Positions 33,001-42,000 of a stretch of DNA of 64,000 bases are shown one piece after another. Location: positions 26,848 to 90,847 of the forward strand of contig JAFGSA010000046.1 in the NCBI GenBank assembly GCA_016934855.1, read 5' to 3'. Numbering within the stretch: the first letter of the stretch is position 1; each line of letters starts with the position of its first letter. Source of the DNA: Elusimicrobiota bacterium. Lineage in GTDB: Bacteria > CG03 > SLGR01 > JAFGSA01. The position numbers were made by a program.

Positions 33001-36000
33001 TGCGGTCTTCTGATCTCGGACGGAAGGAGCCTGCTGCGGCTGGTAAAGAAAAGCCGTTTCGACCTGATAGCCTTCTCCTGCACCTCGGGGCAGCATTACT
33101 GGGCGCTGAAAACCGCCATGCAGATAAAAAAAACCCTGCCCAGCGGGATCAGTATAATCCTAGGCGGCCCCCACCCCACCTTCTTCCCCGAAGTGATAGA
33201 ACACCCGGCCGTAGACATCATATGCCGCGGAGAAGGCGAGTACCCCATGCTTGAACTTGCGGATGATATCGGTTCGGGCCGCGATATAAGCCGCATCGAA
33301 AACCTGTGGGTAAAGAAAGACGGGCAAATATACAAAAACAGGCTCAGGCCGGCTATCGAAGATATCGACGACCTGCCTTTTCCCGACAGGTCTATCTATT
33401 ACAAGTATTCTTATTTCCGCGATAATCACGTCAAGAATTTCATGGCCGCCAGGGGGTGTCCGTATAATTGTTCGTACTGCGGCAATTACGGATTGAGGAA
33501 GCTCTACGGCGGCTCGTATTACCGGCATAGGAGCGTAGACAATGTCGTAAGGGAAATAAAGAAGGTGAAAGACAGCTGCAGACTGAAGGTTATCCGCTTT
33601 CAGGATGACATACTGGCAGTCGACAAGGAATGGACGCGCTCTTTCTGCAGCGAATACAAGAAAGTGATAGACCTTCCCTTCATATGCCATATTATGGCGA
33701 ATACGGTCGATGAGGATATTATAAAACAACTGAAAGGCGCCGGCTGTATCGTGGCATGCTTCGGCATAGAATCGGGGGATGAGAATTACCGGCTTGATGT
33801 TCTCAATAAACCCTTAAAAGACATCCATATCGTGAAAACCGCCGGAATGCTGCGGAGGCACGGGATGTTCTATTACACCCAGAACATGTTCGGGATGCCG
33901 GGCGAGACTCTCGCAAATGCCCTGAAAACAGTCAATATCAACAGAAGAATAAGAGCCAGCGTCGTCGGATCGATTTTTCAGCCGCTGCCGGGCACAAAAC
34001 TGGCAGAAGAATGTATTAAGAAAAAACTCATCAAGCATGACGATATTGACAGGATAGGAAGTTCTTATCAAAAAAGCGTACTAAAGCAAAAAGATACGGG
34101 GAAGCTTGTAAATCTCTGTCATCTGTTCTATTTTATCAACATGGTCCGCGCCCCCTCCCCCCTTGTGAGACTGCTGATTTCCTTTCCGCCCAATTTTGTT
34201 TATCTTTTAATATACCGGATGTGCGATGCCCTGTCTTTCTTCCACCGCACGCGCATGGGACTCCCGAGGCTCTTTATCGAAATCATATATCAGCGCAACT
34301 ATCATCTCGACAGGCCTATTAAATAAACCGCTGCGGACAGCCGTTATCATCAGCTTTCAGTTTTCACCGTAATTTGTTATATTAATTGCTATGGATACGT
34401 CTTCGCTTTTCCTTTCTGTTATAGTGCCTGCATATAATGAAGGAACTCAAATAGGCGGCAATATCGCCGGCCTCACCGGTTATCTGGACGCGCGCGGGTA
34501 TGCCTTCGAGATAATAATCGTCGACGACGGGAGCACTGATTCGACAGGTGATATCATCTCGGGGATTTCCAAATACGACAGCCGTATAAAGCTCATTATA
34601 AACAGCCGGAACAAGGGCAAGGGTTATTCCACAAAAAAGGGAATAATGGCCGCGGCAGGCAGATTTATACTGTTTACCGACGCCGACTGCCAGATCTATT
34701 TCGAGGAACTTGAAAAGTTTATTGAATTAATCGCCAGCGGCTGCGATATCGTCATCGCTTCGCGCCTCCTGCCCGGCGCGGAACTGCACGGCAGGCAGTC
34801 CTTATTCAGAGCGTTTTCACGGAAAGTCCTATCCTTCCTGGTTAAATCATTCCTTATGCCCGATATCACGGACTCCCAGTGCGGATTCAAATGCTTCTCA
34901 CGTCAAGTAGCAGAGACAGTTTTCAGAAAACAGACGATAACGGGTTTCGGATTCGATATAGAAATACTGTATATAGCATATAAAGCGGGTTATAACATAA
35001 AAGAAGTCCCTATCAGCTGGAAATCAAGTAAAACCACGAAAGTCAGGCTGATCCCGGACAGCATCGGGGTATTGAAGGATATTATTAAGATAAAAATAAA
35101 ATCGATTTTAAGCAAGTACTGATGACCCGGCCGTGAATAAAGAGAAGTTAGTCCTGATCAATCCGCCCATGTCCAGAAAAGCCCGCTACGGTGCGTTTGC
35201 ATCTTTGGGTGGGATAGAGCCGCCCCACGGATTGTGCTATCTGGCCGCCGCCGTAAAAAGACTCGGTCTGCCGGTCGAAATAATCGACGCCCAGGCACTG
35301 AATATGGATGTATCGGAAATTATACGGGCGATAGAACGTGCCGATCCTTCCGTCATAGGGCTTACGGCGGTTACCGCGTCTATCCGCAAAGCCGCGGAAA
35401 TTGCCCGATGCATTAAAACCGCAAATCCCGGGATCACTACGATAATAGGCGGGATACACTTATCGGGACTCCCCGCCAAAACCATGGACATGTTCCCCCA
35501 GTTCGATATCGGCATAATCGGGGAAGGAGAGATCACTCTTACAGAGATCTTCGGGCGCCGGCTTGAAAACAAATCCCACGAAGATGTCAGGGGAATAATC
35601 TACAGGGAGAACGGGCGGCTTGTTAACACCGGCCGCCGCGATTATATCGAAGACCTTGATTCTCTTCCTATGCCGGCCTACCACCTTCTTCCCAGGCTGG
35701 ACAGATACTACTATCTTCCCACGCAGAATTCCGCCGAGGCATCTTCCATATCCATAATGACTTCCCGGGGGTGCCCTTACGGCTGCTATTTCTGCGATCA
35801 TTCCGTATTCGGGAGCAGATTACGCCGCCACGGCAACCCATACATCATCTCGCTTCTCGAGCACCTTAAGGCTGCCTACGGGATAAAGGATGTATTTTTC
35901 CAGGATGACACTTTTTTTGCCGACGAAAACCGCATAAGGGAACTGCTTGCCATGATGATAGACAGCGGGCTTAATATAAAATGGAGCTGCCATGTAAGGC

Positions 36001-39000: not shown

Positions 39001-42000
39001 CGAACCGGTCAGGTAATACAGCGGGGGGCGCTGCTTTTTGAAAGCCAGCTCCCAGAATCTGCGCAGCCATTCTGCATCTGGCCGCATATCCTTCAGATGA
39101 TCATGTATGTCGGCCGTTATGCAGAAATCGGCGACGGAATCCGGGCACAGAAGATATCCGTCGTTATCCAGGATTATCAGGTTATTCACAGTGTACAGCG
39201 CCATCAATCCGGACAGAAAAAACAGAAAGCGGTATCTTCTCAGTAATCCCGTTGCTTTTGCCCCGCCGTTACGGATCATCTGCGGAACCCGGGCCGCAGG
39301 ACGCCGGATAACCAGCCTGCGAACAGCGATAATGCCCCGACAGCAAGGCGCTTCAGGTTATTGAAAGACCTTACCCGCGCCAGCTGTTCGATGACGATCC
39401 TGGGGCGGCAGTAAAAACGCCTGTTGGCTGTCGCGACATATCCGTCCACCTCTTCCCTGTTAAGCTCCGTACCGGCCGGTTCTATGGGTCTGCTGTCATG
39501 CGGGTCGAGGGTATTTGCGGCCCAGTAGTCGCCCATACCGTTATCCATGTAGTACTGATATACCTCCGTCATGGGCATGGGAACAAGGAACGCAAACTGC
39601 GCGTAATTCAGCGGCAGCGAGAGCGAAAAATCGATGGTATCTTTTATGGTCTGCTCTGTCTCGCCCGGATATCCGAACAGGAAGTACCCCAGCGCATCCA
39701 GCCCTATATCCCTGGTGTAATTGACTATATATTTCACCCTTTCGATGGATATATCCTTGTTCATGCGTCTTAATATATCCCTGCTGCTGGATTCGATACC
39801 GTAGAATACAGTATGGCATCCGGCGCTTTTAAGCCTTTTCAGCATCTCTTCGTCCACCGTATCCACGCGGCTCCTTACCGTCCAGCTCAAACCGAGCCCC
39901 GCCTCATCAAGCCCGCTGCAGATATCCGATACTCTTTTTTTGTCGGCAGTGAAAGTCGAATCATAGACATCGAATTCCCTTATGCCGTGCCGCTCATAAT
40001 TATCTATTACTTCCCTGACGAAGTTGCCGGCGCTCCTCTGCCTGTAAACCGGGTTCTTCTGATCGCAGAAACCGCACCTGTACGGACACCCCCTTGCCGA
40101 GAGCATGGCAGTAAAATTCTTCTTCCTGGTGAGGATATTCGAATACAGCTCGTTCCTTATAAGACCGCGCTCCGGGAAAGGTACCGAATCGCAGTCTTTG
40201 ACGAATTGCCGGCTGGTTTCCATCCGGACGCTGTCTCCCTCGCGGTATCCTATGGATTTTATACCCTCGAACCTTCGGTTGCTCTTAAAGGCCTTTACGA
40301 ACTGCGGAAGCGGGATCTCGGCTTCCCCGAATATGGCATAATCTATCTCCCGATGAGACATCGTCTGGGCGGGATAGAGCGCCGCATGAGGTCCTCCCGC
40401 CAGTACCGGCAGGCCCGTATCATGTTTCAGTTTTCTTATGAGCTTCAACGCGGGACCGAAACTGTATGTGGCCAGGGTGAACCCCATGAGATCCGGGCCG
40501 AAATCCCCTATCTTCTTCAATACCCGGGAGTACGGGAGCTTTTCCGCATTCATATCGATAAGCTGCACCTCGACTCCTTCTCTTATCAATATGGCCGCAA
40601 CAGTCAGGAGACTCAGGGGCGGTATCACGCCGATGCTCCTCTCCCTGAAGAGCATATACCTGAAATTGACGTTCAATTCATCGGGATCGTTCGGGTTGAA
40701 GATAAGGCTTATTTTCATGAAGGTTTTTTAGTGTTTTTCCCTCCGGATAACCTGCCTATATGCGAAAACACCGCCTCGGACAGCGGCCGAATCAGGGCTA
40801 ACAGGCTGAATCTCTTCAGAACCGGCCATATCCGCCACACTGACGAATATATCCTGAGCAGCCCCGTTTTCTGAAGCTCCATGATATCATCGGGCGACAT
40901 GCCGTTTACGGACAGGACGGCGGAGTTATACCTCTGGTATTTCGAGAAATCCTCCGTGACAAGCCTGAGACCGTGCTCCTGTTTTTTTGCCATCTCGAAG
41001 AATTCGGTTCCGGGGTAAGGTATCGCGACGCTGAAAGTCGCGTGCTGTATATCCCTGCTGCCCGCCAGGAACTTGATTGTCCTGCAGATACTTTCCCTCG
41101 TATCCCCGGGCAGTCCCAGCATGACGGAATTTATGGTCTCTATCCCGTTTTTCTTGGTAAGCCGGTTGGCATGAACATACTTTTCCAGAGGTATCTCTTT
41201 TTTTATCAGCTTTTGAACCAGGGGGTCCGTGCTTTCAAGACCGAAGCTGAGCCTTATCAGGCCGCTGTCCGCCATTTTCTCCATGAGCTCTTCGTCCACC
41301 ATGTCGGCCCGCGTGCTGCCCTCGTAGGTCATTTTAATGCCTTTTCTTTTTATCATCCCGCACATATCCAGTATATAATCCCTGTCGAGCGTCAGGACAT
41401 CGTCGATGAAATAGAAATGGCGCACACCGTGTTTCTCGATCACAGTATCAATCTCCCGGATAACTTCCGCAAGCGACCTGCGGCGCACCCGGCTTCCCAT
41501 TACCCGGTTGCTGCAGTATACACACTCAAACGGACACCCCCTGGAAATCATTATAGACGTATACTTTCGTTTTCCTCTTAGGGTCCCCACCCGGTACTTA
41601 TCCGTCTTCAAAAGATGCCTGGCCGGAAACGGCACGGAATCCAGGTCTTTTATCCTCCCGGGCCGTCCCGTATTGATAATCCCGCCGTTCTGCCTGAAGA
41701 TCAGGCCGGGCACGGACGAAAAGGCTCTTCCGCCCGCGTATTCTTTCAGAAATGCGGCAAAACTTTCCTCTGCTTCGCCTGTAAACAGAAAATCAAAACA
41801 ATCGCTGAAGGCTTTTTCCCCGAAAAGGCTGATATGTGTACCGCCTATTACCACTGGCACGCCGATCTCCTTTTTGATTTCCGAGGCCAGCTTTACCGCC
41901 AGGTGAAACATGGGGGTGGTAGCGGTCATTCCCACGATATCGGGGCCGAACGGATTTATCCTGCCGATTATCTCTCCGGATGTCAGTTTTTCGACTTCAC

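Follow-up and report, generated by a model that had tools for sequence, protein, structure and literature searches.

What kind of pathway is encoded by positions 34391-39279 of a 64,000-nucleotide stretch of Elusimicrobiota bacterium DNA (GenBank assembly GCA_016934855.1, contig JAFGSA010000046.1, positions 26,848 to 90,847 of the forward strand; hereafter the window)? A sequence-only reading had described this interval as a complete three-component module of the Arn/Gtr type, iterated several times in the window, in which a soluble family 2 glycosyltransferase (GT2) loads a sugar onto polyprenyl phosphate, a flippase-like protein carries it across the membrane, and a polytopic glycosyltransferase of the GT-C fold transfers it on the periplasmic face. 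All of the open reading frames (ORFs) named in that reading proved to be real, and their families were confirmed. However, a gene for a B12-binding radical S-adenosylmethionine enzyme (B12-rSAM) lies within the interval, at 35133..36551, and had gone unmentioned; for the window as a whole the glycosylation genes had been recognized, but 17 B12-rSAMs and about 10 genes for exported SGNH proteins, with or without tetratricopeptide repeats (TPR), had been overlooked. The more interesting feature of the locus is therefore one absent from that reading, namely that an ArnT-like GT-C family is repeatedly found coupled to batteries of cobalamin-dependent rSAMs.

The genes in and beside the interval were assigned with Pfam as follows.

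32860..34326, plus strand: B12-rSAM, first gene of an operon with the GT2 (PF02310, E 4e-17; PF04055, 4.4e-16; 65-bp gap to the GT2)
34391..35122, plus strand: GT2 of 243 amino acids, putative polyprenyl-phosphate sugar synthase (PF00535, E 1.6e-32)
35133..36551, plus strand: B12-rSAM between the GT2 and PF03706 genes (PF02310, 9e-23; PF04055, 3.4e-20)
36592..37602, plus strand: polytopic PF03706 (LPG_synthase_TM) protein of 336 amino acids (E 3.4e-44, profile positions 4-302 of 302)
37615..39279, minus strand: GT-C, the most divergent of five (PF13231 PMT_2, 9.3e-14; PF03901, Alg9-like, 3.2e-07)
39276..40718, minus strand: B12-rSAM (4-bp overlap with the GT-C)
40715..42151, minus strand: B12-rSAM, first gene of an rSAM-rSAM-GT-C operon (4-bp overlap with the next gene)

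The rSAM gene 35133..36551 lies 10 bp downstream of the GT2 gene and 40 bp upstream of the PF03706 gene. The GT-C gene is convergent with the plus-strand GT2 and PF03706 genes and is the last of its minus-strand operon, where it follows the rSAMs 40715..42151 and 39276..40718.

Dpm1/ArnC/GtrB-type GT2s produce polyprenyl-phosphate sugars. Besides the focal gene, three further GT2s were found in the window.

43996..44703, plus strand: GT2 of a second module (PF00535, 8.5e-15; best NCBIfam matches AglJ, dolichyl-phosphate hexose transferase and ArnC)
52231..52968, minus strand: GT2 of a third module (PF00535, 2.5e-23)
14546/14582..15298, plus strand: fourth GT2

All four are 235-250 amino acids long and lack transmembrane (TM) segments, so that none has the C-terminal membrane domain of a processive synthase. 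The best matches of the focal GT2 among solved structures were ArnC (9bhc, 4.9e-16), the Pyrococcus dolichyl-phosphate mannose synthase DPMS (5mlz, 1.1e-15) and GtrB (5ekp, 1e-11), as expected for the soluble DPM1/ArnC/GtrB-like enzyme that had been proposed. The top NCBIfam matches of all four were polyprenyl- or dolichyl-phosphate glycosyltransferases (PgfS, AglJ, ArnC, PpgS), far below the equivalog cutoffs. The DxD and D..CGF motifs are kept across the four paralogs, except that the first aspartate of DxD is replaced in 43996. As the paralogs are only 20-30% identical to each other, they are old. These comparisons support the assignment of the window GT2s as polyprenyl-phosphate-glycosyltransferase-like.

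GT-C enzymes use polyprenyl-phosphate sugar donors at the outer face of the membrane. The focal GT-C has four paralogs in the window, two of which pair with GT2s (at 42297..44703, and at 52231..52968 with 55900..57660), as had been reported.

42297..43919, plus strand: GT-C paralog, second module (PF13231, 9.7e-14)
55900..57660, minus strand: GT-C paralog, third module (PMT_2, 17.4 bits, below threshold)
20512..22269, plus strand: GT-C paralog (PMT_2)
30999..32717, minus strand: GT-C paralog (PMT_2)

The five proteins match one another in BLAST at 22-35% identity and, given this low identity, are likewise old paralogs. The member that scored below the PMT_2 threshold, 55900..57660, is 33% identical to 20512 over 519 amino acids (E 1.6e-73), and 42297..43919 matched all 150 listed representatives of the family (BLASTP, E < 1e-10). 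An exhaustive HMMER search with a profile of the five paralogs returned 7459 cluster representatives at E <= 0.001 and 953 at E <= 1e-30; a word-based homologue search, started from the single sequence or from a 57-sequence profile, recovered only the query protein itself. NCBIfam gave no match for 37615 or 42297 and a weak archaeal STT3 match for 20512.

The fold of the focal GT-C was predicted with AlphaFold2. A model built on the five paralogs only (pLDDT 42.6) was discarded. With the 57-sequence alignment the model reached a pLDDT of 78.1 and a pTM of 0.81, and its TM domain (residues ~10-370) was mostly above 90. When this model was compared with the PDB by Foldseek, the top match was ArnT (5f15; E 1.1e-6, TM-score 0.49/0.50, root-mean-square deviation 4.3 Å over 380 columns), followed by STT3, ALG9, ALG12, AglB, PglB, Pmt4, AftA/B and EmbA/B. 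The first 37 matches were all GT-C enzymes, and transporters were confined to E > 0.1, their TM-scores being near 0.1. Sequence searches of the PDB found nothing with the five-paralog profile and, with the 57-sequence profile, a weak ArnT match (E 0.017) that the fold search confirmed. The family profile aligns over the entire TM domain of ArnT (5ezm). At the column of ArnT D158, which together with D55 we take to be a catalytic-site residue, 80% of the 57 family members and all five window paralogs carry an acidic residue; at the D55 column, such a residue is found in 37615, 42297 and 30999. Modelling and alignment thus confirmed a predicted GT-C fold for the five membrane proteins, in agreement with the earlier assignment, which a transporter or other fold would have overturned.

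The third component is less securely placed. The protein at 36592..37602 covers the full PF03706 profile and passes the NCBIfam model for a flippase-like domain (TIGR00374; 76.8 bits vs a cutoff of 43.2), so the family named in the earlier reading was correct. However, its gene is single-copy in the window. A trio of GT2, PF03706 and GT-C genes does exist at 34391-39279, but it occurs only once, and the other copies consist of a GT2 and a GT-C without a flippase-like gene; the claim of an iterated complete module therefore did not hold. No GtrA, EamA or MATE match was found in the window, where no unassigned coding space is left for one. HpnL belongs to the same lysyl-phosphatidylglycerol synthase/AglD family as PF03706, and its role is still unknown (10.1101/2025.07.29.667474). 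As a relative without known function shares the family, we treat the flippase label as hypothetical and refer to the protein as a candidate flippase. A scan of genome contigs with this protein found nothing; for this reason, and because its homologues P0002 and P0006 sit in unrelated gene contexts, we stopped using the gene to recognize the system.

The chemistry of class B radical SAM enzymes consists of methylation at unactivated carbons or of rearrangements. Every one of the 17 window B12-rSAMs contains PF02310 together with PF04055, although in 22266 the former scores 23.9 bits against a cutoff of 32.1. The three cysteines of the CxxxCxxC motif (C214, C218, C221) are invariant in an alignment of the 17 sequences, whose mutual identity is 25-47%. 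Judged by these sequence features, all 17 qualify as putative class B (cobalamin-binding) enzymes. All match the curated model of HpnJ (best E 4.3e-55), at ~125-190 bits vs a cutoff of 577.6; for 35133..36551, in the focal interval, HpnJ is the best NCBIfam match (172 bits). The best PDB match of the latter is AprD4, an aminoglycoside diol-dehydratase (6fd2, 7.9e-19), after which come an unnamed radical SAM protein (9ccb), TokK and OxsB.

We then asked how regularly these two families occur together. Scans of genomes and metagenomes with a GT-C sub-alignment yielded 17 loci, whose ORFs were annotated with Pfam and by BLAST comparison with the proteins of the window. After near-duplicates were merged (L006 = L011, L015 = L016, and L008 ~ L009, which share 86-98% amino-acid identity), nine independent loci had usable flanking sequence: L006/L011, L007, L008/L009, L010, L014, L015/16, L017, L018 and L019. 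Radical SAM genes adjoin the GT-C homologue in all nine. On the short contigs L012 and L013, no rSAM was seen within the 1.4-3.6 kb of one-sided flank. Gene content around the GT-C is listed here for L007, L008, L010 and L015-L019.

L007, uncultured bacterium: three B12-rSAMs, GT-C, three B12-rSAMs
L008, Ca. Undivivens industriae (Omnitrophota): GT2, SAM-methyltransferase, B12-rSAM, YdjC, B12-rSAM, B12-rSAM, GT-C of 907 amino acids
L010, metagenome, GC 0.33: GT-C, rSAM (71% identical to 29499), rSAM (52% to 27997), carbohydrate esterase family 4 (CE4) deacetylase, DegT (49% to 26750), two further rSAMs
L015-L019, metagenome: GT-C and rSAMs, with SGNH genes in L015-L018 and extra PMT_2 genes in L015/16, L017 and L019

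The lineages that could be named were Elusimicrobia and Omnitrophota, and GC content among the metagenome-derived loci ranged from 0.33 to 0.57. Window positions 26750..32717 are syntenic with L010 660..9521, and L006 9905..14631 (L006/L011) is similar. The 29499-type rSAM was unusually conserved between these loci (64-71% identity in L006/L010), despite the difference in GC content (0.33 in L010 vs 0.57 in L011).

The most informative locus is L008, with the compact Omnitrophota operon (3329..12448), a self-contained set of seven genes flanked by leuS/comEC and by BamD-like/lptE/holA/murJ genes. Its GT-C belongs to the same family as those of the window (hhalign probability 99.7%, E 2.6e-26). 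For its GT2 the best matches are PgfS, ArnC and AglJ, for all three of its rSAMs HpnJ, and for its YdjC protein HpnK (165.2 bits vs a cutoff of 232.6). As the operon is self-contained, it is simplest to suppose that its rSAMs, deacetylase and methyltransferase act on an intermediate that the GT2 produces and the GT-C uses up. Genes for a BamD/YfiO-like TPR lipoprotein, LptE and MurJ follow the operon directly (12435..16669); these envelope genes are weak circumstantial evidence in favour of an envelope target. Across the related loci examined, rSAM genes are the most consistent neighbours of the GT-C family. Therefore, the module exceeds a plain three-component system.

The same association runs through the remainder of the window. 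The further rSAM genes are given below.

2121..3575, 4916..6397, 6399..7808 and 10962..12419: four B12-rSAMs
15291..16775, minus strand: B12-rSAM, convergent with the fourth GT2
22266..23720, plus strand: B12-rSAM
27997..29502, minus strand: B12-rSAM
29499..30935, minus strand: B12-rSAM
46211..47674, minus strand: B12-rSAM
47740..48864, minus strand: radical SAM protein without a B12 domain (best matches tungsten-cofactor maturase and prokaryotic viperin, far below cutoff)
50835..52253, minus strand: B12-rSAM
52944..55893, minus strand: two B12-rSAMs between the GT2 and GT-C of the third module
60664..62259, minus strand: B12-rSAM with a C-terminal TPR fusion

A plus-strand block with overlapping coordinates consists of GT-C 20512..22269, B12-rSAM 22266..23720 and SGNH-TPR 23713..25053. 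On the minus strand, GT-C 30999..32717 is followed by rSAMs 29499..30935 and 27997..29502 and by a DegT gene (26750..27997). The third module reads, in minus-strand order, rSAM-TPR, YdjC, SGNH, DegT, GT-C, rSAM, rSAM, GT2, rSAM, SGNH-TPR; its genes are separated by short gaps or overlap, and 49323..52253 forms the downstream end of this run.

Some further properties of the rSAMs were recorded. Fusion to TPR was seen in the window (60664..62259, C-terminal) and in the rSAM/SPASM protein of L018 (28..1317, N-terminal), and the island SGNH proteins bear the same kind of repeats. Genes akin to the non-B12 rSAM 47740..48864 recur in L010, L015/16, L018 and L019. Membrane anchoring of the rSAMs was considered; three of those in the window have C-terminal hydrophobic segments, which were absent from most of the orthologues checked, and this was not used as evidence.

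The accessory enzymes named in these blocks are the following.

8237..9211 and 9221..10672: SGNH proteins
23713..25053, plus strand: exported SGNH-TPR protein
44769..46214, minus strand: exported SGNH-TPR protein
49323..50828, minus strand: exported SGNH-TPR protein with an N-terminal TM segment or signal anchor
58944..59822, minus strand: SGNH protein
26750..27997, minus strand: DegT aminotransferase
57670..58926, minus strand: DegT aminotransferase
59819..60667, minus strand: HpnK-like YdjC deacetylase (HpnK, 194.8 bits vs a cutoff of 232.6)

An N-terminal TM segment or signal anchor was predicted in all window SGNH and SGNH-TPR proteins. YdjC and CE4 enzymes deacetylate N-acetyl sugars, and the window YdjC protein scored higher on HpnK than on chitin disaccharide deacetylase.

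Coding density in the window is high (about 46 genes). In addition to the 17 B12-rSAMs and the one rSAM without a B12 domain, Pfam assigned five PMT_2-type polytopic proteins, four small GT2s, one PF03706 protein, about 10 SGNH/GDSL proteins (the majority fused to TPR), two DegT aminotransferases, one YdjC protein and one AsnB-type amidotransferase; the counts of GT-Cs, GT2s, DegT and YdjC agree with those reported before. A few ORFs have no family assignment. The amidotransferase and four other ORFs are listed next.

614..2023, minus strand: polytopic membrane protein, about seven predicted TM segments, no Pfam or NCBIfam match
3863..4927, plus strand: ORF of 354 amino acids with a weak PP-loop-type N-terminal motif (DUF7411, 2.3e-4; QueC, 0.04)
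8086..8280, minus strand: small ORF of 64 amino acids with one TM segment, DUF5989 (PF19451, E 1.8e-13), just upstream of the SGNH gene 8237..9211
12460..14391, minus strand: glutamine-hydrolysing AsnB-type amidotransferase, passing asn_synth_AEB (388.5 > 267.1 bits)
16868..18565, minus strand: polytopic membrane protein, about nine predicted TM segments, no Pfam or NCBIfam match

The amidotransferase came closest to that of the XrtA/PEP-CTERM system (409 bits vs a cutoff of 816.9), and it may be a sugar-acid amidation enzyme. The two polytopic proteins aligned weakly with the GT-C profile in hhalign (614..2023, E 0.051, probability 1%; 16868..18565, E 0.002, probability 14%) and could be additional transferases, flippases or acceptor-handling proteins. 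An Rfam scan of the window found no cobalamin riboswitch and no other RNA family, and GC skew was below zero in nearly all 2-kb bins. By Pfam, the 64-kb window contains no Leloir GT-B enzyme, initiating phosphoglycosyltransferase, Wzx/Wzy, Wzz or ABC exporter. It therefore has the appearance of a decoration system rather than of a polymer-assembly locus.

On balance, we favour the view that the interval is a single unit within an island, at least 64 kb long, for cell-envelope glycan decoration in an uncultured Elusimicrobia bacterium, and that a lipid-linked sugar or amino sugar undergoes radical tailoring there before it is transferred along a route of the three-component type. From the gene content, the family and fold assignments and the conserved neighbourhood we infer the following steps. 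The TM-less Dpm1/ArnC-like GT2 would load a sugar, probably an N-acetylhexosamine (HexNAc), onto polyprenyl phosphate at the cytoplasmic face. The resulting polyprenyl-phosphate HexNAc would be deacetylated by the HpnK-like YdjC protein (in L010, by the CE4 enzyme), and one to several B12-rSAMs would tailor the lipid-linked sugar or amino sugar by C-methylation at unactivated carbons or by rearrangement. The product would be flipped, possibly by the PF03706 protein in the focal module, and the ArnT-like GT-C would move the sugar to an envelope acceptor outside the cytoplasm. There, SGNH and SGNH-TPR proteins may edit the product in the periplasm by adding or removing O-acyl groups. With five GT-Cs, four GT2s and 17 rSAMs, the island may produce several differently tailored sugars or serve several acceptor sites. 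A precedent for such chemistry exists in the hopanoid pathway, where HpnI, HpnK and HpnJ act on bacteriohopanetetrol and radical SAM chemistry takes place on lipid-bound glucosamine; a comparable ring contraction has been proposed for Cds (PMC13459092).

Several observations weigh against this proposal. None of the 17 B12-rSAMs scores above any curated NCBIfam cutoff (best matches HpnJ, BchE and ApyD, at ~1e-55). A ring contraction of the HpnJ type would destroy the glycosyl-phosphate donor that the GT-C needs; methylation, a donor-preserving rearrangement, or use of the modified lipid as acceptor is therefore favoured. At the D55 column of ArnT, where the loop alignment is uncertain, 20512 and 55900 have no evident acidic residue. 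No PF03706 homologue was found in any of the related GT-C loci examined and the homologues P0002 and P0006 keep unrelated company, so that the flippase role of this protein is hypothetical. The window contains no NDP-sugar dehydratase or epimerase that would feed the DegT enzymes. Finally, the survey of nine loci was made through one short peptide pattern and is not a census of the family.

An unlikely alternative is a head-group pathway resembling HpnI/J/K/L, in which the GT2 would put GlcNAc on a resident membrane lipid instead of polyprenyl phosphate, YdjC would deacetylate it, a B12-rSAM would contract or remodel the ring into a cyclitol-like head, the PF03706 protein would take the role of HpnL, and the GT-Cs would add sugars at the outer face. 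The same four families are clustered in both cases, since the hopanoid kit comprises the GT2 HpnI, the B12-rSAM HpnJ, the YdjC protein HpnK and the lysyl-phosphatidylglycerol synthase/AglD protein HpnL (10.1101/2025.07.29.667474). Among curated models, rSAM 35133 is also closest to HpnJ and the window YdjC protein to HpnK, and the same holds for the L008 rSAMs and YdjC. Nevertheless, every score lies under its curated cutoff (TIGR03471 for HpnJ, TIGR03473 for HpnK), and HpnI (TIGR03472) and HpnL (TIGR03476) gave no match at E <= 0.001. The GT2s are of the Dpm1-like, TM-less subtype and match polyprenyl-phosphate enzymes, not HpnI; neither squalene-hopene cyclase nor HpnH, core genes of hopanoid synthesis, is present in the 64-kb window; and the island adds GT-Cs and has 17 rSAM genes vs one. 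As the GT-Cs use polyprenyl-phosphate sugar donors, a Dpm1-like GT2 would still be required.

It is a little less probable still that plain Arn/Gtr-type modules add ordinary sugars here and that the rSAM, SGNH and remaining genes serve separate pathways and only happen to lie in the same island. The family and fold assignments of the GT2, PF03706 and GT-C proteins fit this explanation, and three-component systems are widespread with varied flippases (PMC11127046). However, rSAM coordinates overlap the GT-C genes or interleave with the GT2 genes, the flippase-like gene occurs only once, and rSAMs stand beside the GT-C family in 9/9 independent loci, including a seven-gene operon amid housekeeping genes.

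Comparison with the individual systems gave a similar picture. Known three-component systems include GtrA/B/C, responsible for O-antigen glucosylation, and a polyprenyl-phosphoribose synthase with a MATE flippase and a GT136 GT-C (Kelly et al. 2024, PMC11127046). The island resembles these in its clustered genes, its cytoplasmic synthesis of a polyprenyl-phosphate sugar and extracytoplasmic GT-C transfer (here predicted from the genes), and its GT-C paralogs, which may provide several decorations. It differs in that the window has no GtrA or MATE flippase and PF03706 only once, and in that its units are interleaved with B12-rSAMs, deacetylases, aminotransferases and SGNH proteins, partners unmentioned in the descriptions of three-component systems that we found. 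Membership of Gtr is further contradicted by the absence of a GtrA-like ORF from the window and by the GT2s, which lack TM segments, whereas GtrB has two C-terminal TM helices. Arn provides both the closest solved relative of the GT2 (ArnC) and the closest solved fold of the GT-C (ArnT). As in Arn, where these are ArnB and ArnD, the cluster holds a DegT aminotransferase and a deacylase, and by analogy the window deacylase would act on the lipid-linked sugar before flipping. Unlike in Arn, the deacylase has the YdjC fold and the rSAMs have no counterpart. Equivalog scores were far below cutoff for ArnC (57.9 vs 529) and for ArnB with the two DegT proteins (137.7 and 87.5 vs 631 bits), and no Pfam domains of ArnA (a decarboxylase/formyltransferase), ArnD (a CE4 deformylase) or ArnE/F were found among the scanned window ORFs of at least 150 amino acids, with no coding space left. 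Therefore, the Arn/Gtr logic of the sequence-only reading stood for the relationships of the GT2 and GT-C but not for membership of either system, and its flippase-like component is single and is not conserved with the GT-C family. By any curated model, the predicted system is not a member of Arn, Gtr or Hpn.

We regard as improbable a role in protein or peptide modification, with PMT-like GT-Cs O-glycosylating envelope proteins or a ribosomal peptide, B12-rSAMs C-methylating a peptide as in proteusin-type RiPPs (peptides made by the ribosome and modified after translation), and TPRs binding the protein substrate: although PF13231 is a protein O-mannosyltransferase family in Pfam, the RiPP enzyme ApyD is matched by 17/17 rSAMs and rSAM_ocin_1 by 13/17, and TPR domains abound in the window, the two largest intergenic gaps hold no precursor-like small ORF (one of the small ORFs listed there is DUF5989), the window has no protease, exporter or RiPP recognition genes, the conserved partners are the carbohydrate enzymes GT2, YdjC, CE4 and DegT, and the compact Omnitrophota operon lacks a peptide gene.

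Clusters of radical SAM genes are not new to this phylum. Groundwater Elusimicrobia carry up to 13 clustered radical SAM genes, some of them B12-binding, beside nitrogenase paralogs (NifH/D/K), with a proposed function in tetrapyrrole modification (Meheust et al., bioRxiv 10.1101/765248). The window shares the phylum and the clustering of rSAMs with these loci but is built on GT2, GT-C and SGNH genes, and assignment to that locus type was rejected, as it contains no Nif-like gene.

Three-component GT-C glycosylation is established biology, and the recurrent coupling of GT-Cs to cobalamin-dependent rSAMs is not in the literature that we searched, where no description of a system combining B12-rSAMs with GT39/GT-C was found. 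Nothing of the rSAM context is visible in current database names, for example 'glycosyltransferase family 39 protein' or 'flippase-like domain-containing protein'. Returning to radical tailoring of a lipid-linked sugar before its transfer, we tentatively suggest, well short of even confidence, that these loci represent a class of envelope glycosylation not described before, present in Elusimicrobia, Omnitrophota and further uncultured bacteria. In such a class, rSAM batteries would act on polyprenyl-phosphate amino sugars to give multiply C-methylated or ring-rearranged sugars installed by ArnT-like GT-Cs, and the 17 paralogs would constitute a combinatorial repertoire. The seven-gene Omnitrophota operon is small enough for heterologous expression, which makes the coupling testable. 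If the rSAMs do act on lipid-linked sugars, the substrates of class B radical SAM enzymes would include a new class, and the island would be a new source of unusual C-methylated or carbocyclic surface sugars in poorly known anaerobic phyla.

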